In this document: positions 5,101-63,232 of the stretch, piece by piece
Layout of the letters: each line of letters opens with the position of its first letter
Numbering within the stretch: the first letter of the stretch is position 1
Source of the DNA: Planctomycetota bacterium
GTDB lineage: Bacteria > Planctomycetota > B15-G4 > JADJEK01
NCBI GenBank assembly: GCA_044225365.1
Contig: JBGAIQ010000028.1
Span: forward strand, 1,703-65,702
Length of the DNA stretch: 64,000 nt
Direction: 5' to 3'
Translations under genes and position numbers: made by a program
The notes under the pieces: generated by a model
The model's database searches: none
Told to the model about the DNA's origin: nothing
The model's input: the letters and a program-made list of their open reading frames with translations, nothing else

Positions 5101-5838
5101 GAATTCCGTGAGGCCGGAGATCGTCGACCCGGACGTGCTGGTGAGCCACGATCCCGACGCGCGTTTGTAGGTGATCGGAGCTGCGACGAACGGATAGAGC
5201 TCGATCGCGCTCACGGGGATCACGGAACCGGCGGCGCCATTGAAGCGGATGCGGATCTTGCCCTGCGCGTCCGCCTTCGCCGTGAACCAGACCTTGCGGT
5301 ACGAGCCGAGGTCGGTGATGAGCTTCGCCTTCGCATACGCGGTGCGCAGGTCGATCCCAGCGGCGACCGTCTTCAGCGCCGAGCCTTCGGACGCGAGCAC
5401 GTCGATCCCGTACAGCGCCGTCGGGAACGAGTCGTACTTGATCATCCCCGGCTTCCAATAGAACGGCACGTGCGCGAGCAGGACGCGGACGCGAACGATC
5501 GAATTGGGAACGACGAGGCAGGAGAACTCAGTGCCGGGATGGACGCGGACGCAGCCCCGGAGCAACGGGCGATCGTCGTCGTCGCGATCGACGATGTCGT
5601 GCGCGGGATTGTCGCCGACCCGGCCATCGAACGGCGTGGCCGAGAAGCCGTAGTCGCCCTGGACTCCGACGAGCGTCGTTGGGTCGACCGCGATCGCTCC
5701 CGGCGCGACTGCCGTCCCCGCCGGCTTCAGATCGAAGCGCGTCGGGGGTTGGAAGACTTGCGCGTGGGAGTCGAGGGACAGCGACGAAACTGCGAACGCG
5801 ACAGCGAAGAGCCGTCGCGCGGTAGGATTTGCAGACAT
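2146..5838 (-). CDS. large secreted protein of unknown function (~1230 aa)
   Basis: ORF 2146..5973. The internal ATG at 5838 begins MSANPTARRLFAVAFAVSSLSLDSHAQ, a signal-peptide-like N-terminus. Open frame with high GC3 throughout. I recognise no domain. Confidence 0.7.
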   Translation of the reverse strand: MSANPTARRLFAVAFAVSSLSLDSHAQVFQPPTRFDLKPAGTAVAPGAIAVDPTTLVGVQGDYGFSATPFDGRVGDNPAHDIVDRDDDDRPLLRGCVRVHPGTEFSCLVVPNSIVRVRVLLAHVPFYWKPGMIKYDSFPTALYGIDVLASEGSALKTVAAGIDLRTAYAKAKLITDLGSYRKVWFTAKADAQGKIRIRFNGAAGSVIPVSAIELYPFVAAPITYKRASGSWLTSTSGSTISGLTEFNAKNFTAAHTKFLALSDPLTRAHALLWLAGWFDGSEKGFTTALAEAKAALATPTLASNARAIEFRDRIQDYEIAELHFSLRNYENAYTMPPQGLGYFNPAYPGSIFAVTPNTSANAARHLYLAENIYYQVAGMQTLSPVIQWNANTQPDTRFEVFPLAFRSLFRVGELHYAMNSMHSYLNGSTPDPGSLAGILAYEKVFSDFDTGGFRTNEFDGCSSLDLMCWVASGASHVHSANGGVWNDWTGADIPSSYVKPTEAWWTPLLAQPTAAPPGAPAWATAERDYARAYRAGIAWWIANRAQNGEFGGGSGDDPELVALLDGPLIALHQPNDVASRNTLLQCADFVLSGSTVNDGYYGGVPVDVEHSAEFTSYPIRAGLGIAPGDPHFLQASLDVVKHVQYPGNAAKSWALADGTGNLRFQAFYFNSDGPPPSSDPAFSQSFVDVPFDGKAMLPAYEVLSHAKLSVVGDAIRAWSNSWVSASLASSSARPLGLVPAAIATGMNGAPPASWWLATTNAGSSYNYPENLPSLPYLYSGAFLTAYFQGGPTAYQYLVPTVELTKGVIAINDAINAGQSVSGLTTVGTANWALNALRFSSAFLDNLATLRPFIATDANLRAIDDPYQSGTTPYVTDSFLASIDSLLATNSYTALSYLAVPQTGPNPAALQYTRKGKTTLVGDLLDGANWLRNHFPLGTTEALYTDRAFLFHGNSHRTLHCALTGDVLDSAVPRPVMTWETPGSAATPVDIAVLVNDLAVKEGTTNPRLRVLLYNFETTPRTVDFRLWNRLAFGKYHQRLGVADPNTDYFSSGYSSLDITYDRAGTKSTVVLAPQSLLLLELEWFQSVPAPSGFDLALSNHDTTATLTGSAATNYSIALSTTVYNAALTPAPGNTAHLYASLLDPNGVALPLNPAGAMEIELPLPQNHPALAALNGLTIPSATINDSLPLTSNVVSMLIAGYRIKFRFQVAVGVNGDLYPHNDSASVVFGW

Positions 5839-5913
5839 CGTTCGATCACCGCCGAAAGTCCGAGGACCGGGGCGAAAAGGCCGAGGCTCGGGACGGCCAT
5901 GTGACGCTACGCT

Positions 5914-6435
5914 GTGGATCCAGGTTCGGTGTTTTCCGGGAGTTCCAGCTTGCGGCTGCTCATCCTGCGTCATGGTATCGCCGAAGAAACATCGCCTACC
6001 GGCAAGGACTCCGGCCGACGCCTCACGAAGGAAGGCAAGGAGAAGATCAGCGCGATCGCCAAGGCGCTGCGGCGATTCGATCTCGCGCCGACGGCAATCG
6101 TCTCGAGTCCGCTCGTTCGCGCGATCGAGACCGCGAATCGGGTCCGCGACGAACTGGGAATCGAATCTCCGATCGAGGTCTTCGAGGAGTTCTCACCCGA
6201 GGGAACCCCTCCCGAGATGGTCGCGGCGTTGCGCCGCGCCGCCTGCGGAGAAGATCTATGCATGGTCGGGCATCTGCCGTCGGCAGCGAACCTCGTTGCG
6301 GCCCTGATCGGCGCGCCGCGCGACGATGCGATCGAATTGAAGAAGGGCGGAGTCGCCGTCATCGAGTTCTTCGGACCGATCGCGATCGCGCGCGGCACAT
6401 TGCGCCTCCTCCTCGCGCCGAAGGTCATGACCTGA
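5914..6435 (+). CDS. sixA: phosphohistidine phosphatase SixA-like (histidine phosphatase superfamily)
   Basis: LRLLILRHGIAEE...RRLTKEGKEKI...IVSSPLVRAIETA contains the RHG catalytic motif in a SixA-like layout. Start is GTG 5914 or in-frame TTG 5950. Confidence 0.75.
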   Translation: MDPGSVFSGSSSLRLLILRHGIAEETSPTGKDSGRRLTKEGKEKISAIAKALRRFDLAPTAIVSSPLVRAIETANRVRDELGIESPIEVFEEFSPEGTPPEMVAALRRAACGEDLCMVGHLPSAANLVAALIGAPRDDAIELKKGGVAVIEFFGPIAIARGTLRLLLAPKVMT

Positions 6436-12164: not shown

Positions 12165-12283
12165 CTTGCGACAGTCCCTTGTCCGACAGTGCTTTTTGGC
12201 ATACACTTGGCGGTCGCCTAGATCCCGACTCTCTCCCCGAGTCGCGATGCCAACGTAGTCTCTCCCAAACAGGAAACCCGAGC

Positions 12284-14155
12284 ATGAAGCGACCGATCTT
12301 CGGCGCAGCGACACTCGTCGCATTTGCGTCCGTGCCCGCTCTCGCGCAGCAGTTCGTCTACAACGCCGCCGCGCTCCCCGCCCAGACCGTCTGGACCAAT
12401 GGCATCGAACTCGCCGATGTCGACGGCGACGGCGACATCGATGCGATCTGCGCCAATGGTAGCTCCTACGGCGCGGGCGGCTCTCAACCGCAGCATCTCT
12501 TCCTGAACAACGGCACGGGCACGTTCACGGCCGCGCATGCCCAGCTCAACGTCGCGAACTTCAACGCGCAGATGGTCATCGCCGAGGACTTCGACAACGA
12601 CGGCGACAAGGACCTCATGTACGCGCCGTCCGGTCCGTACCCGTCGCCCACGGCCCTGCCGAAGATGCTCATCAACAACGGGCTCGGCGTGTTCAACGAC
12701 CAGTCGGCGACGCGCCTCCCGGCGATCCCGATGTCGGCGTTCTGCGTGTGCGCGGGTGATATCGACAACGACGGCGACCTCGACGTCGTCTTCACCGACG
12801 GCGCGAGCAGCCTGAACGGCACCGCGGCGCAGTCGCACCTCTACCTGAACAACGGTAGCGGCTTCTTCACCGACGCCACGGCGACGAACCTCCCCTCGGT
12901 CATCTACAACTGCCAGGACGTCACGCTCGGCGACTGGGACGCGGACTTCGACATCGACATCATCCTCACGGGCAAGGGCGGCGGAAGCCGACTCCTCGTC
13001 AATGACGGCACGGGTCATTTCACGCTGAACACCGTGCTGAACAGCTCGGGTACCAGCCTGACGTACGAAGGCGATCCGGCCGACCTCGATGGCGACGGCG
13101 ACCTCGATATCGCCATGCAGTCGATCTCCGGCTTGAACGAGGGCTGGGTACGCAACAACGGCGCGACCGTGACGAACGTCACGTTCAGCGGCACGAACGG
13201 CGCCGATGACAACGAGATGGCGGCGTTCGACTACGACAACGATGGCGACCTCGACGTGATGGTCGCGTCGCTCGCGTTCTCGAGCGAGAAGGCCTACAAC
13301 AACAATGGCAACGTGTTCACGTTCGCCAACATCTTCCAGGCCCAGACCGACTCCTCGCTCGACTTCGGTTTCGCCGACCTGAACGGCGACAAGAAGTACG
13401 ACATGTACACCGCGCAGGGCGAGTCGGGCAACTTCACCGACAAGGTGTACTTCAACAATGGCCCGGCCGACACGATCAAGCCGACGATCCAGGCGACCAA
13501 TTCGCCGGTCTCGATCGGCGCCGGCGGCACGGTGTTCAAGGCGCGCGTTCGCGACGCGATCGTCGACGACGGACACATCAACGCGACCGCGCGACTCGTC
13601 TACGCGACGAACGACGGAGCGGGCGGCGTGTCCGGAGTGGCGACGGCGATCAATCAGGGCTGCGGTCTGTTCCGCGCCGCGGCTCCTTCGAGCGGCGCGA
13701 CGACGGCCGTTTCCTCGGCCTGGGTCGTCACCGATTCGGCCAAGAACACGTCGGTGACCGCCACCTCGCAGATCGGCGGCGCGAATGGTTGGGCGACGCA
13801 GACGGCGGGCAAGACGGGCGCGAACGGCGTTCCGGCGCTCGTCGGTGCGGGCGACAACTCGGCGAACTCCGCTGGCGTCATCGGCTTGTTCTCGGCGCGC
13901 GGCAATACGACGGCGATCCTGATGATCGGCACGTCGCCCGGTAACGTCGCCCTCTTCGGAGGCACGTTGCTGCCGTTCCCGATCGTCGCCCAGGTCGCGC
14001 TCACGACGAACGCGAACGGGGACGTCGTCCTTCCGTACGTGTTCCCGGCGGGCGTGCCGGCCGGCGTCAACATCTACCTCCAGTACGTGATCCAGGACGC
14101 GGCGGCGACCCAGTCGGTGTCGTTCAGCAACGGCCTCGTGCTCACCACGAAGTGA
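12284..14155 (+). CDS. secreted FG-GAP/VCBS repeat protein
   Basis: Internal ATG 12284 begins MKRPIFGAATLVAFASVPALAQQ. Repeated Ca-binding-like DxDxDGDxD loops are present (DVDGDGDIDAI, DFDNDGDKDLM, DIDNDGDLDVV, DLDGDGDLDIA, DYDNDGDLDVM). Confidence 0.8.
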   Translation: MKRPIFGAATLVAFASVPALAQQFVYNAAALPAQTVWTNGIELADVDGDGDIDAICANGSSYGAGGSQPQHLFLNNGTGTFTAAHAQLNVANFNAQMVIAEDFDNDGDKDLMYAPSGPYPSPTALPKMLINNGLGVFNDQSATRLPAIPMSAFCVCAGDIDNDGDLDVVFTDGASSLNGTAAQSHLYLNNGSGFFTDATATNLPSVIYNCQDVTLGDWDADFDIDIILTGKGGGSRLLVNDGTGHFTLNTVLNSSGTSLTYEGDPADLDGDGDLDIAMQSISGLNEGWVRNNGATVTNVTFSGTNGADDNEMAAFDYDNDGDLDVMVASLAFSSEKAYNNNGNVFTFANIFQAQTDSSLDFGFADLNGDKKYDMYTAQGESGNFTDKVYFNNGPADTIKPTIQATNSPVSIGAGGTVFKARVRDAIVDDGHINATARLVYATNDGAGGVSGVATAINQGCGLFRAAAPSSGATTAVSSAWVVTDSAKNTSVTATSQIGGANGWATQTAGKTGANGVPALVGAGDNSANSAGVIGLFSARGNTTAILMIGTSPGNVALFGGTLLPFPIVAQVALTTNANGDVVLPYVFPAGVPAGVNIYLQYVIQDAAATQSVSFSNGLVLTTK

Positions 14156-41770: not shown

Positions 41771-42010
41771 CGGGCTCTGCCCGGTTCCGGAGGGAAGATG
41801 CCGGGCGGAGCCCGGCGGTCCGTGAGCGCATCCACTCAATTTCCGGAAGGAAGATGCCGGGCGGAGCCCGGCGGTCCGTGAGCGCATCCACTCAATTTCC
41901 GGAAGGAAGATGCTGGGCGGAGCCCGGCGGTCCGTGAGCGCATCCACTCAATTTCCGGAAGGAAGATGCTGGGCGGAGCCCGGCGGTCCGTGAGCGCATC
42001 CACTCAATTC
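41771..42010 (+). repeat. tandem array of 4 x 56-bp units, each carrying a REP-like hairpin, preceded by one inverted partial copy
   Basis: The anchor GATGC recurs at 41797, 41853, 41909 and 41965 (exact 56-bp period). Unit: GGAAGGAAGATGCCGGGCGGAGCCCGGCGGTCCGTGAGCGCATCCACTCAATTTCC. Hairpin: GCCGGGC-GGA-GCCCGGC. An inverted-type copy CGGGCTCTGCCCG lies at 41771-41783. Confidence 0.9.
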
Positions 42011-55569: not shown

Positions 55570-57427
<1,858 letters not shown>

Positions 57428-57505
57428 ATCTCGGCCACTCCATCGACGATGAGCCCGGTTCGCAAGGGGTCTCCGCCGCCCAGCTGCAAAGGACGAAGGC
57501 GAAGG

Positions 57506-60175
57506 ATGAAATCCATGTTCCGCATATCGGCCATTTGGGTCGCAGTACCTGTTCTCGCCGTTTGCGCCGCGTTCTCGGCGGTCGCTCGTGCGGGCGACGT
57601 GTTCACGTTCACGCCGGCGGCGAAGTACAAGCCCGAGGTGCCGACGGTACCGTCGCTCACCGGCTTCCAGGTCGGCGAGAAGTACGTCGACAGCGGCATC
57701 GTGAACCGGGTGGTGACGACGCTCGCCGGCGCATCGGACCGCGTGCGATACGTGCGCTACGGCGAGACCTTCGGCGGACGCACTCTGCAGCTCCTCGTCG
57801 TGAGTTCACCCGAGAATCTCGCGCGGTGGAACGACATCCAGGCGGGGCTCGGGAAGTTGACGGATCCGCGACGACTGAAGGACGACGCCGAGCGCGATCG
57901 CCTCGTCCAGTCGTTGCCCGTCGTGGTTTGGATCTCGTTCAATGTGCACGGGAACGAGGCGTCGCCGACGGAGGCTGCGCTCGCGATGCTCTATCACCTC
58001 GCCGCGGCCGACGATCCTTCGGTCGACAAGCTGCTCGCGAATGCAGTCGTCGTGATGGATCCCTGCGTCAATCCCGACGGCCGCGATCGCTACGTCAACT
58101 GGTTCCGCAGTCGCGTCGGTGCGACGCCGAATCCCGATCCGCAGGCCGACGAGCACGACGAACCCTGGCCCGGCGGACGCGTCAATCACTACTACTTCGA
58201 CCTCAATCGCGACTGGGCGTTCCTCACGCAGATCGAGACCCGATCGCGCATCGCGAAGTATCGCGAGATGATGCCGCAGGTCCACGCCGACCTGCACGAG
58301 ATGGGGCAGAACCAGTCGTACTTCTTCTTCCCCGCGGCGACACCGGTGCACGACGAGTTCCCGCGCGCGACCGTCGAACTCGCGAAGGCCTTCGGTCGCG
58401 GCAACGCTTCGGCATTCGATCGCTTCGGCTGGACGTACTACACCGCCGAGGAATTCGATCTCTTCTACCCGGGCTACGGTGACTCGTGGCCGTCGCTCAA
58501 CGGCGCGATCGGAATGACGTACGAGCAGGCGGGCCACAGCCGCTCGGGCGTCGCGGTCGAACGCGACGACGGGTCGATCCTCACCTTGAAGGATCGCGCG
58601 GCACATCATTTCACGGCCGTACTCGCGACGATCGAGACCTCGGTCGCGCACAAACAGGAACTCCTCGAGTCCTACGCGCGCTTCTACGCCGATGCGATGT
58701 GGGAGGGCGAACGCGGACCGGTGAAGGACTACGTCCTCGTGCCCGGCGTCGACCGGGTTCGGATGACGGACCTCGTCCGGCTCCTGCTCGATCAGGGAAT
58801 CGAGGTGAAGAGTGCGAGCGCGGGATTCCGTGCCGAGCGATGTCACGACTTCGACAGCGACAAGGTCGAGAGCCGCGCATTCCCACCGGGGAGCTACGTG
58901 ATCGAACTCGCTCAGCCTCGCAAGCATCTTGCGAAGGCACTGCTCGAGCCGGCCGCGGCGGTGCGCGAGAACACGTTCTACGACGTCTCCGCATGGAGTC
59001 TGCCGCTCGCGTACGGAGTCGAAGCGTGGTGGACCGAGACCAAGGTCGAAGGCGCGCTCAGCGACGTGACGAGCAAGGATCTCGCGATTCCAACTCCCAC
59101 GAAGGCGATCGCGAGCGCGCCGCGCGTCGGCTACCTCGCGCGTTGGGATTCGTTCGCTGCGCCGCGATTCCTCGCACGAGTGCAGCAGGAGGGCAAGGGC
59201 GGAGTCGAAGTGCGCATCGGCTCGGAGCCCTTCGCCCTCGACGGGGTCTCATTCGCCCGCGGAACGCTCTTCCTGCCCGCCGCGGCGCTCGACGAGTCCG
59301 AGCATGCGCTCGTGCGCAAGATCGCCGCGGAAACGGGCGTCGATCTCATCGCGACGGATACCGGCCTCACCGAACGCGGGCCGAATCTCGGAAGCGGCAG
59401 CTTCAATTTGCTCGCTGCGCCGTCGATCGCGATCGTGACCGGGGAGGGAACGGATCCTGGTGCCGTCGGGTCGTTGCGATTCCTCCTCGAGCAACGCTAC
59501 GGCTTCCCATTCACGCAGATTCCGCTCACGCAACTCTCGCGCGTCGACTTGCGCCGTTACAACGTCCTCGTGATGCCCGAAGGGTTCGGGTACTTCCGCG
59601 AGATCCCGCGCGCCAAGGATGCACTCACGCGATTCGTCTCCGACGGCGGCGTTCTGATCGGGATGGGAAGTGCGGCATTCGCGCTCGGTGACGACGGCGC
59701 GAAGATCGTCGGCGTGAAATCGGGCGAGGCCGACGGGAAGGCGCAGGAGCCGCCCAAACCGGCGGGCTGGAAGAAGCTCGCGGAGCGGCGTCTCACTTCG
59801 CTCGAGGATGCCGTCCCCGGAACGATGTTCCGACTCGAACTCGATCCCGCACATCCTCTCGCCTACGGCTACGACCGGCCGCTCGCGGTCCTCATGGATT
59901 CGCCGCGCGCGTTTGCGTTGGAAGGGCCGGGAACGCGGGTTGGCGTGTTCCCGAAGCAGTCACTCCTCGCCGGATTCGCATCGACCGAGAACGCGGCGAA
60001 GCTGGACGGGAAGGCGTTCCTCGCCGACGTTTCCTTGGGTTCAGGTCATGTCGTGCTCTTCGCAGGCGATCCGACGTTCCGCGGCTTCGTTCGCGGTCAG
60101 GTCGGCATCCTGATGAACGCGATGCTGCTCCTCACGCAGCCGATCCCGACGCCAGCGCCTCACGCGCTCCGCTGA
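57506..60175 (+). CDS. secreted M14-family metallocarboxypeptidase-like protein (~889 aa)
   Basis: Internal ATG 57506 begins MKSMFRISAIWVAVPVLAVCAAFSAVARA. WISFNVHGNEASPTEAAL (HxxE zinc site) and the DLNRDW segment are typical of M14. Confidence 0.8.
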   Translation: MKSMFRISAIWVAVPVLAVCAAFSAVARAGDVFTFTPAAKYKPEVPTVPSLTGFQVGEKYVDSGIVNRVVTTLAGASDRVRYVRYGETFGGRTLQLLVVSSPENLARWNDIQAGLGKLTDPRRLKDDAERDRLVQSLPVVVWISFNVHGNEASPTEAALAMLYHLAAADDPSVDKLLANAVVVMDPCVNPDGRDRYVNWFRSRVGATPNPDPQADEHDEPWPGGRVNHYYFDLNRDWAFLTQIETRSRIAKYREMMPQVHADLHEMGQNQSYFFFPAATPVHDEFPRATVELAKAFGRGNASAFDRFGWTYYTAEEFDLFYPGYGDSWPSLNGAIGMTYEQAGHSRSGVAVERDDGSILTLKDRAAHHFTAVLATIETSVAHKQELLESYARFYADAMWEGERGPVKDYVLVPGVDRVRMTDLVRLLLDQGIEVKSASAGFRAERCHDFDSDKVESRAFPPGSYVIELAQPRKHLAKALLEPAAAVRENTFYDVSAWSLPLAYGVEAWWTETKVEGALSDVTSKDLAIPTPTKAIASAPRVGYLARWDSFAAPRFLARVQQEGKGGVEVRIGSEPFALDGVSFARGTLFLPAAALDESEHALVRKIAAETGVDLIATDTGLTERGPNLGSGSFNLLAAPSIAIVTGEGTDPGAVGSLRFLLEQRYGFPFTQIPLTQLSRVDLRRYNVLVMPEGFGYFREIPRAKDALTRFVSDGGVLIGMGSAAFALGDDGAKIVGVKSGEADGKAQEPPKPAGWKKLAERRLTSLEDAVPGTMFRLELDPAHPLAYGYDRPLAVLMDSPRAFALEGPGTRVGVFPKQSLLAGFASTENAAKLDGKAFLADVSLGSGHVVLFAGDPTFRGFVRGQVGILMNAMLLLTQPIPTPAPHALR

Positions 60176-60520: not shown

Positions 60521-60646
60521 GGACCGCCGGGCTCTGCCCGGCTCCGATCCCATGCCGGGCGGAGCCCGGCGGTCCCGCATTCGGGCCGACTTCCTGCGGG
60601 CGCGGTTTCCCTACACCGTACCGATGCCGGGCGGAGCCCGGCGGTC
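60521..60646. repeat. REP-like hairpin elements: one inverted plus two direct copies
   Basis: GGACCGCCGGGCTCTGCCCGGC (60521-60542, inverted orientation). ATGCCGGGCGGAGCCCGGCGGTCC (60552-60575). ATGCCGGGCGGAGCCCGGCGGTC (60624-60646). Same core as the 41.8-kb array. Confidence 0.9.
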
Positions 60647-60651
60647 GGTTG

Positions 60652-60846
60652 CTACTTGTCGGCGATGTCCTCGCGGCCGTAGCGACGATCGCCTTCGAAC
60701 TCGCCGAGTTCGAGGTCGAGCTCCTCCGCGGGCTTCTTCGGGTCTTTCGCGCGCACGATCTTCAACAGGGGATCCTTGTTCGGATTCCCGTGCGTCTTCT
60801 TCTCGGCGTCGGATTTGTTCTCGCGTGCCTTGTCCGCCATCGTCAT
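60652..60846 (-). CDS. acidic/charged 64-aa peptide (candidate precursor peptide B)
   Basis: The ATG overlaps the stop of the upstream mini-ORF (ATGA). High GC3. Product is MTMADKARENKSDAEKKTHGNPNKDPLLKIVRAKDPKKPAEELDLELGEFEGDRRYGREDIADK. Confidence 0.6.
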   Translation of the reverse strand: MTMADKARENKSDAEKKTHGNPNKDPLLKIVRAKDPKKPAEELDLELGEFEGDRRYGREDIADK

Positions 60847-61007
60847 CGCTCCTGTCCGGTGAAGCCTTCCTTCAATCGATCGCCGTCGCCGATCTCTTCG
60901 AGATCCAGATCGAGTTCGTCGGTGTCGTTCTCGATCTTCTCGGGTCTCGCCGGTGCGGTGTTCTCCTGCGAGTCCTCCGCGGGCTCCTCGTCCTTCTTGC
61001 GGATCAC
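60843..61007 (-). CDS. acidic 54-aa peptide (candidate precursor peptide A), hidden in the tail of a shadow ORF
   Basis: GTG 61007 overlaps the rSAM stop (GTGA) and lies 6 nt after AGGAGG. Product is (M)IRKKDEEPAEDSQENTAPARPEKIENDTDELDLDLEEIGDGDRLKEGFTGQER. Shares an ELDL-x-L-x-E motif with peptide B. Confidence 0.55.
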   Translation of the reverse strand: MIRKKDEEPAEDSQENTAPARPEKIENDTDELDLDLEEIGDGDRLKEGFTGQER

Positions 61008-63232
61008 TTGCCCACCTCCTGCGCGATCTCCGCGGGGAGGCGAGTTGCCTCCGCGAGGCCGCGCTCGAACAACGAGAGGATGAACTCGCGCACCGCGCGG
61101 CGCTTCGTCTCGGGGTACCGCGCGAGGATCTCGCCGACCGTCCGATGGCCGTCGAGCGACGCGAGGATCGCGGCGGCGTCCTTTCCGATGCGCAGCAGGT
61201 CCGACGACTCGCCGCGAAAGACGACCGGGGTGCGCGACGGCGGAGCAGGCTCGATCACGTCGCCGAGTTGCTCCAGCATCTCCGTCTTGAACGATCCCGA
61301 TTGATAGCGGGGGCGAAGCGTGCGGTCCTCGGCGTCGAGCAATGTCTTGCTCACCGCCATCAGGTCGTACGGCAGATCCCGGACGACGACTCCCTCCGCG
61401 ATTCGCGGTTTGGCGAGGTCGAGCGGAACCGGCGGGAGCTTCGCGATGGCCGGCGAGCTGCGGCCTTCGAAGACGTCGAGCGTGCCTTCGCGACAGAGCC
61501 ACAGGAAGTGATGGCTCTTCAGCTCGAAGAGCCAGAGGTTGTCGCCCTGGAACAACGGGAAGTCGCGGCGCACGACCTCCATGAAGTCGAAGAAAACGGC
61601 GCGAGCCTGCGCGCGGTTCATCCCCACCGAGCCGTCGTGGTCGTAGTAGACCTGATAGTCCTTCGTCGCGTCGTGATGGACCTTCGTGATCTGGAAGCGC
61701 TCGGGATGCGCGTACACGGTGGAGAGCAGATCGATGTAGAAGATGCGCAGCGAGACTTCCTGGATCAGATGACGGTGGGTCCGGATCCACTCGAGAGTGA
61801 GTCGGGCCTCTTCCTCCGTCTCGGTCGGGAAGCCGATCATCGTGTAGAGCACGACCGCGATGCCCGCGTTCGTAATGTTCTCCAGGATGCCTTCGGCCTC
61901 CTCGATCGCAGTTCCCTTCTCCATCAGGTCGAGAACGCGCTGGCTCGCCGATTCGAAGCCGAGTGCGATTCGCCGGCATCCCGCCGCGTAAAGCCGCTCG
62001 CACAGTTCCTTCGTGTAGAGATTGCGTTCGAGTCGAGCGTCGGTCCACCACAGGATGTTCAGATTGCGGCGAGCGAGCGCGTCCGGGAGATTGCGGAAGA
62101 GGACCGGCGGCATGTCCTCGACGACGAAGTACACGTAGTTGCTGTTCCAGCGGGTCGTGATCTTCTCGATGTCGTCGAGGATCTTCTCGAGGTTGCGCTG
62201 GCGGTAGCCCGGGCCGATCACCTTGTAGAGCGTGCAGAACACGCACTTCTCGTAGTAGCAGCCGCGCGTGATTGCGAGCGGCAGTGCGATGTGCGGCGAG
62301 AAGTAGCGGTCGAAGGGCATGCCTTCGAAGTCCGGCGTCGGCAACGAATCGATCTCGAGCGGCGCGACGGACTTGTTCGTCACGACGACGCCGTCGGCGT
62401 TCCGCCACACCAGGTTGCCGATGTCGGATAGGCCCGCTCCGCTCTCGATCGCGCGAGCGAGTCCGAGGAGCGGGCCTTCGCCCTCGAGCATCACGACCGA
62501 ATCGATGACGTCGAAGACCTTGCCGGATTTCGCGACCTTGGCGCCCGCATACGCGAGCAACCCGCCGCCGATCGTGATGTGGACCTTGGGCAGCTTCTCC
62601 TTGATCATTCGCGCGAGCGTGAATGCCGGGATGATCATCGAACCGTAGGTGATCGAGATGCCGATGAGATCGGGCTTCGCCTCGACGATGCTCGGAATGA
62701 CGACGTTCGAGTAGAACTCGGCGTAGAGGTTCTCCGAGGTGTCGAAGATCGCGGCGAGGACTTCCGATTCGCGTTCGATCGAGTAACGCATCGAGAAGCT
62801 GTTCGGCGAGAGGACCGTCGGGTACCACTCCGCCGAGATCAGCTTGAACGCGCGATCGATCCGCTTCACGGCCTTGACGTACTCGTCGTAGTCGTAGAAG
62901 CGTTCCTTGTCGCGAAGCGTCGCGATCGCGTCGTCGATCCCGGCGACCACACTGTCGGCGGCGAGATCGGCCTCGGCGAGCGTGCGGAAGCGATCCATCG
63001 CGTCGAGCGGGAGCGGCGCGTCGCCTTCGAACTTCGCGAGCGCGGCCCGCACACGATCGCGGGCGAGGCCAAGGCGCGCGGGCGAGAGGAAGTACTCGAG
63101 CGACTCGAGGTTGAGGTCCCGCTGATGCGTGTCCGGGAAGCCGTTGGCTTTCAAGTACGCGGTGAGCGACGGAAGCGCGAGGTACGGCTGGGTGAAGTGC
63201 GCCTGCGGCGGGAAGAGGAGAAGGGTGCGCAT
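61004..63232 (-). CDS. B12-binding-domain radical SAM protein with C-terminal PqqD/RRE-like domain
   Basis: N-terminal MRTLLLFPPQ...LIGISITYG...KVHITIGGG is B12-binding-like. The radical SAM cluster motif is RGCYYEKCVFC (nt 62231-62266). The C-terminal LLRIGKDAAAILASLDGHRTVGEILARYPETKRRAVREFILSLFERGLAE is PqqD-like. Confidence 0.85.
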   Translation of the reverse strand: MRTLLLFPPQAHFTQPYLALPSLTAYLKANGFPDTHQRDLNLESLEYFLSPARLGLARDRVRAALAKFEGDAPLPLDAMDRFRTLAEADLAADSVVAGIDDAIATLRDKERFYDYDEYVKAVKRIDRAFKLISAEWYPTVLSPNSFSMRYSIERESEVLAAIFDTSENLYAEFYSNVVIPSIVEAKPDLIGISITYGSMIIPAFTLARMIKEKLPKVHITIGGGLLAYAGAKVAKSGKVFDVIDSVVMLEGEGPLLGLARAIESGAGLSDIGNLVWRNADGVVVTNKSVAPLEIDSLPTPDFEGMPFDRYFSPHIALPLAITRGCYYEKCVFCTLYKVIGPGYRQRNLEKILDDIEKITTRWNSNYVYFVVEDMPPVLFRNLPDALARRNLNILWWTDARLERNLYTKELCERLYAAGCRRIALGFESASQRVLDLMEKGTAIEEAEGILENITNAGIAVVLYTMIGFPTETEEEARLTLEWIRTHRHLIQEVSLRIFYIDLLSTVYAHPERFQITKVHHDATKDYQVYYDHDGSVGMNRAQARAVFFDFMEVVRRDFPLFQGDNLWLFELKSHHFLWLCREGTLDVFEGRSSPAIAKLPPVPLDLAKPRIAEGVVVRDLPYDLMAVSKTLLDAEDRTLRPRYQSGSFKTEMLEQLGDVIEPAPPSRTPVVFRGESSDLLRIGKDAAAILASLDGHRTVGEILARYPETKRRAVREFILSLFERGLAEATRLPAEIAQEVGK

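Follow-up and report, generated by a model that had tools for sequence, protein, structure and literature searches.

Among the described systems closest to the locus reported here is the aminopyruvatide pathway of Burkholderia thailandensis. Its enzyme ApyD combines an RRE with a B12 radical SAM architecture and adds a beta-methyl group to the penultimate residue, a tyrosine, of its precursor, and the characterised peptide-modifying class B enzymes are mostly methylases (PMC10635010). The TIGR03975 family (rSAM_ocin_1, the PoyB/PoyC-type enzymes of the proteusins) likewise joins a B12-type Rossmann domain to a radical SAM core and acts on ribosomal peptides. CteB, a SPASM-type enzyme, has an RRE as its N-terminal domain. 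The Rossmann domain and radical SAM barrel are also present in OxsB, TsrM, MgmA, CysS and TokK; none of these has a fused RRE, and they act on nucleotides, tryptophan, a folded protein or small molecules bound to a carrier.

Here we describe an operon on the minus strand of the window, the whole 64-kb stretch of planctomycete DNA that was analysed. A gene for a 742-aa radical SAM enzyme is followed by two mini-ORFs, A and B. The first-pass annotation had read the enzyme as peptide-modifying and coupled to small precursor ORFs. This inference is supported by the homologous loci and by the domain calls, which were upheld, and the locus is probably a RiPP-type maturase-precursor operon, taking the enzyme-substrate pairing and the peptide modification together. 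The system had also been called undescribed. That holds within Pfam, NCBIfam and the searchable literature, which contain neither a curated family for the enzyme and peptides nor a description of them, but it does not hold for the fusion of RRE and B12 enzyme itself, which is known from ApyD (PMC10635010). The literature otherwise contained only generic mentions of PqqD-like and B12-binding genes in surveys of biosynthetic gene clusters from marine metagenomes. The architecture is therefore already known, and the present system is a new variation on it. The features of the locus are as follows.

61004..63232, minus strand: gene for the radical SAM enzyme (742 aa) ending in a predicted RRE, counted with its stop codon (ORF listing)
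63116..63232, minus strand: first two Rossmann strands, residues 1-39 (AF2: E3-7, H19-29, E35-39)
62678..63115, minus strand: helical insertion splitting the Rossmann domain, residues 40-185 (AF2 helices)
62438..62677, minus strand: second part of the Rossmann domain, residues 186-265 (PF02310 match and invariant GGG)
61778..62290, minus strand: predicted radical SAM barrel core, residues ~315-485 (PF04055 and Foldseek)
62234..62260, minus strand: CX4CX2C [4Fe-4S] motif, C325-Y-Y-E-K-C330-V-F-C333 (invariance)
61253..61777, minus strand: family-specific C-terminal accessory domain and linker, residues ~486-660 (conserved stretches)
61037..61243, minus strand: predicted PqqD/RRE-type peptide-recognition domain, residues 664-732 (Pfam, AF2, Foldseek)
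60843..61007, minus strand: mini-ORF A, 54 aa, ending ...ELDLDLEEIGDGDRLKEGFTGQER, with a GTG start overlapping the enzyme stop
60652..60846, minus strand: mini-ORF B, ending ...ELDLELGEFEGDRRYGREDIADK, of 64 aa (ATG at 60846) or 62 aa (ATG at 60840)
60524..60644, no strand: GC-rich palindromic repeat, in three copies, shortly 3' of mini-ORF B

The enzyme frame has gene-like codon bias, with GC at codon positions 1/2/3 of 0.64/0.41/0.88. There are 328 homologues at E<=1e-10 and, among the matches listed, most are near full length. The AF2 model of the full-length enzyme has a pLDDT of 91.4 and a pTM of 0.91. Its nearest folds in the PDB by Foldseek are OxsB (E 6e-17), TsrM, MgmA, CysS and TokK, the E-values running from 6e-17 to 6e-14, and AprD4 is also a neighbour. 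OxsB is the best PDB sequence match as well (E 5e-7). Identity to the five is only 13-18%, with whole-chain TM values of 0.37-0.47. The make-up in three domains (B12-type, radical SAM and PqqD/RRE) that had been proposed from the ORF found support in each of its parts. By sequence and by model the enzyme is predicted to be a class-B-like radical SAM protein that ends in its own PqqD/RRE docking domain.

A search against Pfam PF04055 (Radical_SAM), which the first-pass annotation had suggested, matched residues 321-483 with 66.1 bits (E 5.7e-18), exceeding the gathering cut-off of 29.5, and places the enzyme in the radical SAM superfamily. The variant cluster motif that had been picked out, RGCYYEKCVFC, is indeed a CX4CX2C, and its three cysteines (C325, C330, C333) are kept without exception across 100 homologues. 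This spacing is common to the distant relatives; an ApyD-like paralogue found in some of the related operons has the canonical CX3CX2C instead. Between the barrel and the RRE (residues ~486-660) are the strongly conserved stretches EVSxRxFYxD, QVYYD and ELKSHxFL, which were used as family-specific search patterns.

The N-terminal domain is a split one. Residues 1-39 carry the motif LLxFPPQxHxTQP, which is invariant or almost so across the enzyme family. In the AF2 model the insertion that follows contains helices at residues 40-48, 51-65, 76-107, 115-135 and 169-185. An insertion had been noticed in this B12-type N-terminus from the sequence alone and it is there, but it lies after the second strand and not the first, and it measures about 145 aa (~40-185; next strand 189-193) rather than the ~130 aa first estimated. 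The Pfam B12-binding model PF02310 matches residues 178-257 with 31.2 bits (E 2.1e-7), just under the cut-off of 32.1, and the match spans HMM positions 43-119 only. Only the second half of the model is covered because the insertion splits the domain. The profile check thus fell just short, while at the level of the fold the class B Rossmann feature is present, the top Foldseek matches being the five cobalamin-type enzymes OxsB, TsrM, MgmA, CysS and TokK. Residues G222, G223 and G224 are invariant in the 100-homologue comparison. A Rossmann domain of B12 type is no guarantee of cobalamin binding; cobalamin-free enzymes with the fold exist, and AprD4, among the structural neighbours, is to our knowledge one that works without cobalamin. 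We infer that the enzyme is cobalamin-dependent.

The C-terminal 70 aa or so share the PqqD pattern. An RRE is a winged-helix domain of three helices and a sheet whose edge takes up the leader peptide as an extra strand. From the window sequence alone the RRE call is weak because its own Pfam score is sub-threshold: PqqD (PF05402) matches residues 675-726 of the full-length enzyme with 15.4 bits (E 0.023) against a cut-off of 23.4, and the isolated domain reaches 18.6 bits, still below that gathering cut-off. Of 54 homologous C-terminal domains, however, 34 match PqqD at E<=0.01, the best with an E-value of 5.4e-9, and several enzyme homologues carry a precomputed PF05402 annotation. A profile of the domain matches the thiopeptide RRE PbtF (8t19) with E 0.0078. 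The AF2 model of the domain (pLDDT 92.3) has the order beta-beta-alpha-alpha-alpha, and its top Foldseek structures are PqqD (3g2b), TbiB1 (5v1u/5v1v; TM 0.65-0.66, rmsd 2.7-3.6 A), CteB (5why) and the lasso B1 protein 6jx3. Some of these nearest structures were solved with leader peptide, TbiB1 for example. RREs make up 9 of the top 13 matches, at E-values of only 0.18-3.5, as expected because the query is only 73 aa. Given the family-wide Pfam matches, the PbtF profile match and a confident model nearest to RREs, the call is supported: the profile score fell short for the window protein itself, many of its homologues did match, and the predicted structure of the segment is in line with an RRE. 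Unlike in CteB, the RRE here is at the C-terminus, and of a class-B-type enzyme.

How close is the enzyme to the families whose chemistry is known? The best NCBIfam match is TIGR03975, 'RiPP maturation radical SAM C-methyltransferase' (117 bits, E 8.5e-34, residues 161-531), against a membership cut-off of 281.85 bits. The ApyD model NF050148 gives 73.8 bits (E 9.7e-21), where 750 bits are needed. Further matches are to profiles of C- and P-methyltransferase families, namely PhpK and HpnJ. Since the enzyme is far below every NCBIfam cut-off, its chemistry cannot be transferred by family membership. The precursors of the window, in contrast to those of TIGR03975, are short and acidic, and the enzyme carries a fused RRE. 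With ApyD the enzyme shares the combination of RRE and B12 radical SAM architecture, and ApyD acts at the extreme C-terminus of a ribosomal precursor, as we propose for the window enzyme. It differs from ApyD in having its Rossmann domain split by the insertion, and its locus has no partner of the MNIO, P450 or methyltransferase kind. The two sets of precursors show no relationship, ending in ...EDIADK and ...GFTGQER as against ...GYLYD, with an acidic penultimate residue as against tyrosine. The enzyme resembles ApyD in architecture and proposed mode of action, yet is not its orthologue.

The two mini-ORFs are coupled to the enzyme gene. Mini-ORF A starts at a GTG (61007) that shares bases with the TGA of the enzyme gene (GTGA) and has AGGAGG 7 nt upstream, and the ATG of mini-ORF B (60846) overlaps the TGA of mini-ORF A (ATGA); the alternative ATG of mini-ORF B at 60840 is the better placed of the two, with a Shine-Dalgarno spacing of 8 nt. 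Translational coupling, claimed at the outset, is borne out by these overlaps and Shine-Dalgarno sites. Both peptides contain a strand-like motif, ELDLDLEE in A and ELDLELGE in B. Nearly all peptides of the family have such a motif (LDLxL or FVFKI) 22-23 residues before the C-terminus, the distance being 22 aa in the B types (occasionally 21 or 23) and 23 aa in A. Between the window and locus L001, the last 24 codons differ by 8 synonymous and 4 non-synonymous codon changes in mini-ORF A and by 10 and 3 in mini-ORF B, and the peptide tails of loci L017 and L019 differ by 10 synonymous and 0 non-synonymous substitutions. The DNA changes in the tails are mostly synonymous, and the peptides are under purifying selection. 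The usual RiPP pattern is a conserved leader and a variable core; these peptides show the reverse, the tail being conserved far more than the N-terminal part. Five peptide variants scanned against Pfam and NCBIfam gave zero matches even at E<=10, and thus no match to an NHLP or Nif11 leader.

The arrangement recurs. The enzyme ORF could be delimited in 71 species-representative loci, and every one of them has, 3' of the enzyme gene, a small ORF with the ending (E/N)(D/N)xADK, in the same order and with short gaps. An earlier set of related loci had given a downstream ORF with the conserved tail in 21 of 22. Absence of motif-bearing small ORFs beside homologues had been named beforehand as a refutation test for the peptide-modifying reading; each of the 71 loci has one. 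On sequence grounds the locus thus has the feature expected of a RiPP system, a putative precursor gene kept beside the enzyme across homologues, and because the arrangement recurs in the related loci examined it is not due to chance. The type of peptide goes with the clade of the enzyme: B1 plus A in clade I, to which the window belongs, B2 in clade II and B3 in clade III. A counterpart of mini-ORF A is present in all 15 clade-I loci and ends KEGF(T/S/V)GQE(R/M). At least 70 species-level genomes contain the enzyme-peptide operon, and the trio or pair is found in many uncultured Planctomycetota; all loci are from uncultured MAGs. One MAG (L107) carries what looks like a real in-frame fusion, in which enzyme and RRE run on into only the last ~24 residues of the peptide. 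Two other candidate fusions were rejected, L015 as a spurious high-GC ORF and P0100 as a frameshift. In clade III the operon encodes another B12 radical SAM enzyme besides, the ApyD-like paralogue mentioned above (190 bits). In clade II, the sister clade, an exported FG-GAP/UnbV_ASPIC lipoprotein is co-operonic, often with a gap of a few nucleotides. An FG-GAP protein encoded in the window (12179-14155) was considered as its orthologue and rejected, the match being at the level of the repeats only, in short segments with 28% identity.

The core of the enzyme has a wider distribution than the peptides. Its N-terminal motif and CX4CX2C core are met again in Nitrospinota, Brocadiia, Chloroflexota and Myxococcota, where the tblastn alignments start at residue 1 of the query and extend to about residue 550-600. 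The relatives in Dehalococcoidia (L023-L026) have an RRE-like C-terminus. In the readable ORFs around the Brocadiia, Myxococcota and Nitrospirales loci, a mostly noisy listing, no RRE-like C-terminal pattern was seen, and a search for the tail motif around the distant relatives gave no convincing DK-tailed peptide in any. The core enzyme type would therefore not be tied to DK-tailed peptides.

The 3' boundary of the operon is marked by the palindromic repeats. Their hairpin, GCCGGGC-TCC-GCCCGGC, can be read in the sequence. The window has seven copies, where chance would give 0.02. The repeats may end transcription or stabilise the transcript; the terminator scan found none on the minus strand directly downstream of mini-ORF B, and the promoter scan gave no match. 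An Rfam scan of the whole window was also empty, and so offers no clue in the form of a cobalamin riboswitch. The neighbouring genes are a YfbK-type vWA gene upstream and, on the opposite strand downstream, genes for an M14 peptidase, LOG and TGT. The vWA gene, 36 nt away, was dropped as a part of the system, as it does not adjoin homologues. The M14 carboxypeptidase could have been a partner for trimming the C-terminal Lys or Arg; it was rejected as evidence because the synteny of M14, LOG and TGT is restricted to the closest relatives (>=70% identity) and is absent elsewhere in clade I. The operon itself lacks genes for a protease, a transporter or immunity. The lack of a protease and transporter is notable, although neither is obligatory for RiPPs.

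What might the enzyme do to the peptides? In the proposed mechanism, the RRE would bind the alternating-hydrophobic, strand-like motif of the A and B peptides. The following 22-23 residues, whose number is constant, may then serve as a ruler that places the C-terminal tail in the active site (...REDIADK in B, ...KEGFTGQER in A). A 5'-deoxyadenosyl radical would abstract a hydrogen atom from a side-chain carbon and, in the likeliest version, methylcobalamin would then donate a methyl group (+14 Da). C-methylation near the peptide C-terminus is our tentative assignment, on which we would not insist. The site is more doubtful still. ApyD places its beta-methyl group on the last residue but one of its own substrate; by this analogy the best candidate, though not a probable one, is the acidic residue that is invariant at the penultimate position (Asp in B, Glu in A). 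Position -4 of the tail varies (V/I/M/T/A) and for that reason is a poor candidate. The conserved D-K tail could also reflect recognition rather than chemistry.

The alternative that survives best keeps the same enzyme-peptide pair and changes the reaction, to a C-C, C-N or C-S crosslink, an epimerisation, a dehydrogenation or a rearrangement, with a Rossmann domain that perhaps does not bind cobalamin at all. We regard this as possible but unlikely. The closest solved structure, OxsB, is a non-methylating, ring-contracting enzyme, and AprD4, which is not known to use cobalamin, is a further neighbour; the Rossmann domain is interrupted and its Pfam score sub-threshold; and the non-canonical CX4CX2C defines a separate clade. 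In clade III the presence of the canonical, methylase-type ApyD-like paralogue beside the family enzyme suggests two enzymes doing different things. Against this, the best profile matches (TIGR03975, PhpK, HpnJ and ApyD) are all methyltransferase families, methylases predominate among the characterised peptide-modifying class B enzymes (PMC10635010), and the GGG of the B12-type Rossmann domain is kept in every homologue compared.

It is much less probable, indeed very unlikely, that the peptides are not substrates and that the enzyme acts on a lipid, a small molecule or a larger protein, its C-terminal domain being a generic winged helix and the peptides co-transcribed but unrelated small proteins or regulators. 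The Nitrospinota, Brocadiia and Myxococcota relatives that share the CX4CX2C core, and in those inspected have neither RRE-like C-terminus nor DK-tailed peptide, would fit such a picture, as would the Foldseek E-values of the isolated domain, which at 0.18-2 are not significant. It leaves unaccounted for the unbroken co-occurrence in one gene order with short gaps, the co-variation of enzyme clade with peptide type, the constant spacing from strand motif to C-terminus, the natural in-frame fusion of enzyme and peptide tail, and the PqqD matches of the homologues with leader-binding RREs as top structural neighbours. That the mini-ORFs are chance ORFs beside a stand-alone enzyme is effectively refuted: spurious ORFs do abound in high-GC DNA (91 ORFs in 9 kb), but the tails are conserved as amino acids through mostly synonymous DNA changes, they recur beside enzymes only ~40% identical, they have Shine-Dalgarno sites and start/stop overlaps, and public gene callers predict the peptides, a profile search finding at least 120 peptide clusters at E<1e-10, every one annotated 'hypothetical'.

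If the reading as a maturase-precursor operon is correct, this would be a new RiPP-like family of minimal composition, one enzyme with its own docking domain and one or two substrates of ~60 aa, which would make heterologous testing easy. It would be widespread, with more than 100 peptide clusters now labelled hypothetical, and would provide a substrate class for part of a large uncharacterised branch of CX4CX2C radical SAM enzymes. The fixed spacing of 22-23 residues would be a testable 'molecular ruler' for the positioning of a substrate by an RRE. Beyond this, and more doubtfully, we raise the possibility that the product is not a variable one of the antibiotic type but a modified peptide of invariant sequence, found throughout the lineage and serving a conserved physiological role, and that the chemistry of this enzyme clade is new to peptides. 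Such a product could be a peptide-derived cofactor or signal, as PQQ or mycofactocin are, or could be a ligand or partner of the exported FG-GAP/UnbV_ASPIC lipoprotein of the sister clade. The unusual conservation of the putatively modified end points to a physiological function in a little-understood and uncultured section of the Planctomycetota rather than to chemical warfare.

The candidate RiPP-type maturase is read from the minus strand of the window, ahead of two mini-ORFs that encode peptides A and B. The features discussed here are:

61004-63232, minus strand: radical SAM enzyme ORF, 742 aa
61007, minus strand: GTG start of mini-ORF A (60843-61007), overlapping the enzyme TGA as GTGA, with AGGAGG 7 nt upstream
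60846, minus strand: ATG start of mini-ORF B (60652-60846), overlapping the TGA of mini-ORF A as ATGA
60840, minus strand: alternative ATG for mini-ORF B, with better Shine-Dalgarno spacing
60524-60644: three copies of a 21-mer repeat, just downstream of mini-ORF B
57500-60175, plus strand: M14 carboxypeptidase-domain protein, ~890 aa, convergent to the operon
56741-57427 and 55570-56778, minus strand: LOG-family and tRNA-guanine transglycosylase (TGT) genes, after M14
41798-41986: four copies of the 21-mer, an array with 56-bp spacing

Upstream, a YfbK-type vWA gene ends next to the operon. The region is 65% GC and, among the overlapping ORFs, the enzyme frame has gene-like codon bias (GC of 0.64, 0.41 and 0.88 at codon positions 1, 2 and 3). 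The translational coupling of enzyme and mini-ORFs proposed in the first-pass annotation can be read in the DNA from the two start/stop overlaps.

The enzyme had been described as a radical SAM core behind a B12-binding-like N-terminus; the core was recovered outright and the N-terminus at the level of fold. Pfam Radical_SAM matches residues 321-483 at 66.1 bits, B12-binding matches residues 178-257 only, at 31.2 bits, just missing the cut-off of 32.1, and fold matches in the PDB agree. An AlphaFold2 model built from a 100-sequence alignment is confident (pLDDT 91.4, pTM 0.91). It places two Rossmann strands at 3-7 and 35-39 and the rest of that domain from 189, with a helical insertion of residues ~40-185 in between. 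The insertion noticed earlier is present, but it follows the second strand, not the first, and is ~145 aa long. In the cluster motif, RGCYYEKCVFC, the spacing is the variant CX4CX2C, as had been noted; its cysteines (C325, C330, C333) are invariant in the alignment, as is GGG 222-224. The top PDB neighbours of the model in Foldseek are the cobalamin-dependent radical SAM enzymes OxsB (6e-17), TsrM, MgmA, CysS and TokK, followed by AprD4 and MiaB/RimO; OxsB is also the best PDB match by sequence.

Searched against 5.8 billion proteins, the enzyme has 328 homologues at E<=1e-10. Among the matches listed, most are 730-840 aa long and those that are named come mostly from Planctomycetota MAGs. Annotations are generic ('radical SAM protein'), with the names BchE and YgiQ mis-transferred. 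The top NCBIfam match, TIGR03975 ('RiPP maturation radical SAM C-methyltransferase'), reaches 117 bits where the cut-off is 281.85, and the next, PhpK, BchE, HpnJ and ApyD, are all far under their own cut-offs, so the enzyme lies outside every curated family. A wider clade at ~30% identity, marked by the CX4CX2C spacing and an N-terminal LLFPP...P.L.LP.L motif, includes Nitrospinota, Brocadiia, Chloroflexota, Myxococcota and one methanogen MAG (loci L023-L085 from other genomes). One of these loci, L075, has tandem paralogues.

Does the enzyme end in a peptide-recognition domain (RRE) of PqqD type, as the first-pass annotation had it? For the family this is well supported. The pattern xLVYxxxTGExxCLSPxAAxLLxxCDGxRTxxEIxxxxPxxxRxxAxxFLxxLxxxGLL runs through the last ~80 residues, PF05402 is matched at E<=0.01 by 34 of 54 homologous domains scanned singly (best 5.4e-9), and the domain profile matches the thiopeptide RRE PbtF in the PDB (E 0.0078). 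Residues 660-732, modelled separately, have a pLDDT of 92.3 and a beta-beta-alpha-alpha-alpha order. The nearest PDB structures are PqqD, TbiB1, the RRE of the sactisynthase CteB and lasso B1, at E-values of only 0.18-2, which is unsurprising because the query is 73 residues long; TbiB1, a lasso-peptide RRE with leader bound, aligns at TM 0.65-0.66 and rmsd 2.7-3.6 A. For the window protein, whose own sequence misses the Pfam threshold (residues 675-726, 15.4 bits against a cut-off of 23.4; 18.6 bits for the isolated domain against PF05402), the assignment is reasonable. An RRE-like C-terminus (LxLCNGxRT...) is kept in Dehalococcoidia members of the wider clade (L023-L026), and no such pattern was found in those members inspected from Brocadiia, Myxococcota and Nitrospirales.

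One enzyme subclade, 55-60% identical to the window enzyme, has 30-60 extra residues after the RRE (proteins P0020-P0043; the L003 and L006 enzymes). The extension, which the window enzyme lacks, ends in a conserved ...AE(T/A)(M/I/V)H(L/V)(Y/H)C(K/Q)P.... At L003, a 106-aa NifX/NifB-C-terminal-like protein (PF02579, Nitro_FeMo-Co; 5684-6004) overlaps the radical SAM gene start; it was seen in this one relative (58% identity) and not in the window.

The small downstream peptides are the strongest line of evidence for a system. In 21 of the first 22 loci, Planctomycetota with a near-full-length enzyme match, a small ORF ending x-(I/V/T)-(A/F)-D-K lies just downstream of the enzyme. A second scan with family-specific patterns gave 74 species-representative loci; of these plus the window and two other loci, 71 have a delimitable enzyme ORF. 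The expectation that homologues would adjoin small ORFs with a shared motif was borne out in 71/71, each with a peptide ending (E/N)(D/N)xADK beside the enzyme. The peptide stop is within ~510 nt of the enzyme stop, the exceptions being one at 1480 nt and one in-frame fusion. A profile search returned 930 candidate peptides, at least 120 clusters of them at E<1e-10. The 120 clusters are 49-71 aa long, end in TNVFDK in 115 cases and carry no functional name ('hypothetical protein' where named); five peptide variants scanned match no Pfam or NCBIfam model, even at E<=10. Three types of peptide B tail track the enzyme clades:

B1, clade I (includes the window): ...LDLELxEFEGDRRYGREDIADK
B2, clade II: ...FVFKIAPADPKNSFDFEDVADK
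B3, clade III: ...LDLSVETVEERISPSETNVFDK

Peptide A (...LDLDLEEIGDGDRLKEGFTGQER) is found in clade I only, in 15/15 of its loci and always between enzyme and peptide B. The alternating-hydrophobic motif lies 22 residues from the C-terminus in B1, B2 and B3, occasionally 21 or 23, and 23 residues from it in A.

The other clades have partner genes. In clade II, the sister clade, whose peptides end in EDVADK, nearly every locus with sufficient flanking sequence (about 50 among L105-L162) has, directly before the enzyme gene and in the same orientation, a gene for an orthologous FG-GAP/UnbV_ASPIC protein of ~580-600 aa, which makes a conserved three-gene operon; that gene is absent beside the window enzyme. 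Across 76 loci examined it lies within 1.2 kb of the enzyme in 54, a few downstream cases included, and the gap to the estimated enzyme start is often only a few nucleotides. The two copies that were read both begin with a lipoprotein-type signal (LVPAC, VVAC). In clade III (...ETNVFDK peptides; L013, L014, L016-L020) the gene directly upstream encodes another B12 radical SAM enzyme; thus each operon encodes a single peptide and two radical SAM enzymes. The second enzyme has the canonical CX3CX2C motif, its B12 domain is not split, and ApyD is its top NCBIfam match (190 bits, below cut-off). Examples are:

L010, 4273-5994, and L086, 3205-5004: FG-GAP/UnbV_ASPIC protein
L018, 3965-5968: second radical SAM enzyme of clade III

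The system would work in the same way as a RiPP maturase-precursor pair. Each peptide would dock on the C-terminal RRE through its strand-like LDLxL motif, and the fixed 22-23-residue spacer would set the conserved tail into the radical SAM active site for attack on a side-chain C-H bond. By analogy, the most likely chemistry is C-methylation near the peptide C-terminus. Two things favour it: methyltransferase families give the highest-scoring profile matches, and there is a precedent in ApyD, a B12 radical SAM enzyme that contains an RRE and installs a beta-methyl group on the penultimate residue of its precursor (PMC10635010). A non-methylating reaction, perhaps one that uses no cobalamin, has to be taken seriously as an alternative, since the closest structure is OxsB, the Rossmann domain is interrupted, the cluster motif is of an unusual kind, and clade III operons contain a separate ApyD-like enzyme of methylase type as well. 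We state cobalamin use, methylation and the site below only as what we infer. All B types and A have in common only a penultimate acidic residue (Asp/Glu) and, usually, a basic C-terminal residue. Because the Asp/Glu is shared by A and the B types while position -4 varies (V/I/M/T/A), it is our best guess, at low confidence, for the modified residue.

Are the peptides the substrates? Comparison across loci gives the predicted enzyme-substrate pairing strong support, and that the peptides are something else is unlikely given the 71/71 co-occurrence, the co-variation of enzyme clade and peptide type, the ruler-like spacing and a natural enzyme-peptide fusion. In this fusion (L107, ORF ending 6810) the RRE is followed in frame by ~10 residues and then only KKYEFRILPADPKNAFEFEDAADK and a stop; the peptide's variable N-terminal part is absent. 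Known from a single MAG and possibly an assembly artefact, it hints, Rosetta-stone style, that the last ~24 residues may be the functional part. Chance ORFs are excluded by the 71/71 recurrence, the 120 or more clusters and tail DNA differences that are mostly synonymous (window vs L001, 10 synonymous to 3 non-synonymous for peptide B and 8 to 4 for A; L017 vs L019, 10 to 0). The excess of synonymous differences shows that purifying selection acts on the encoded proteins.

Window neighbours were not counted in the system because their synteny is limited to the closest relatives; the M14/LOG/TGT block is kept only where the enzyme is at least 70% identical, and is probably unrelated to the peptides. 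No obvious protease or transporter was found in the operons examined. The palindromic GC-rich 21-mer CCGCCGGGCTCCGCCCGGCAT (hairpin GCCGGGC-TCC-GCCCGGC), present in seven copies in the window against 0.02 expected, looks like a REP-type intergenic repeat.

The architecture of RRE plus B12 radical SAM has already been found in ApyD, so the fusion is not categorically new; the enzyme is not a member of ApyD or TIGR03975, since both scores are far under the cut-offs. Five features appear to be new: a clade of enzymes that combine CX4CX2C, a split Rossmann domain and a C-terminal RRE; the family of peptides; an operon with a single enzyme and no genes for processing or export; the lipoprotein partner that recurs in the sister clade; and a reversed conservation in which the tail is near-invariant and the N-terminus variable. 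No description of the family turned up in the literature searched. In a metagenomic survey of a marine basin, PqqD-like and B12-binding genes were frequent among BGCs and uncharacterised. The system is a clean, easily testable lead, and the unusual degree of conservation of its product hints at a function in physiology rather than as an antibiotic.
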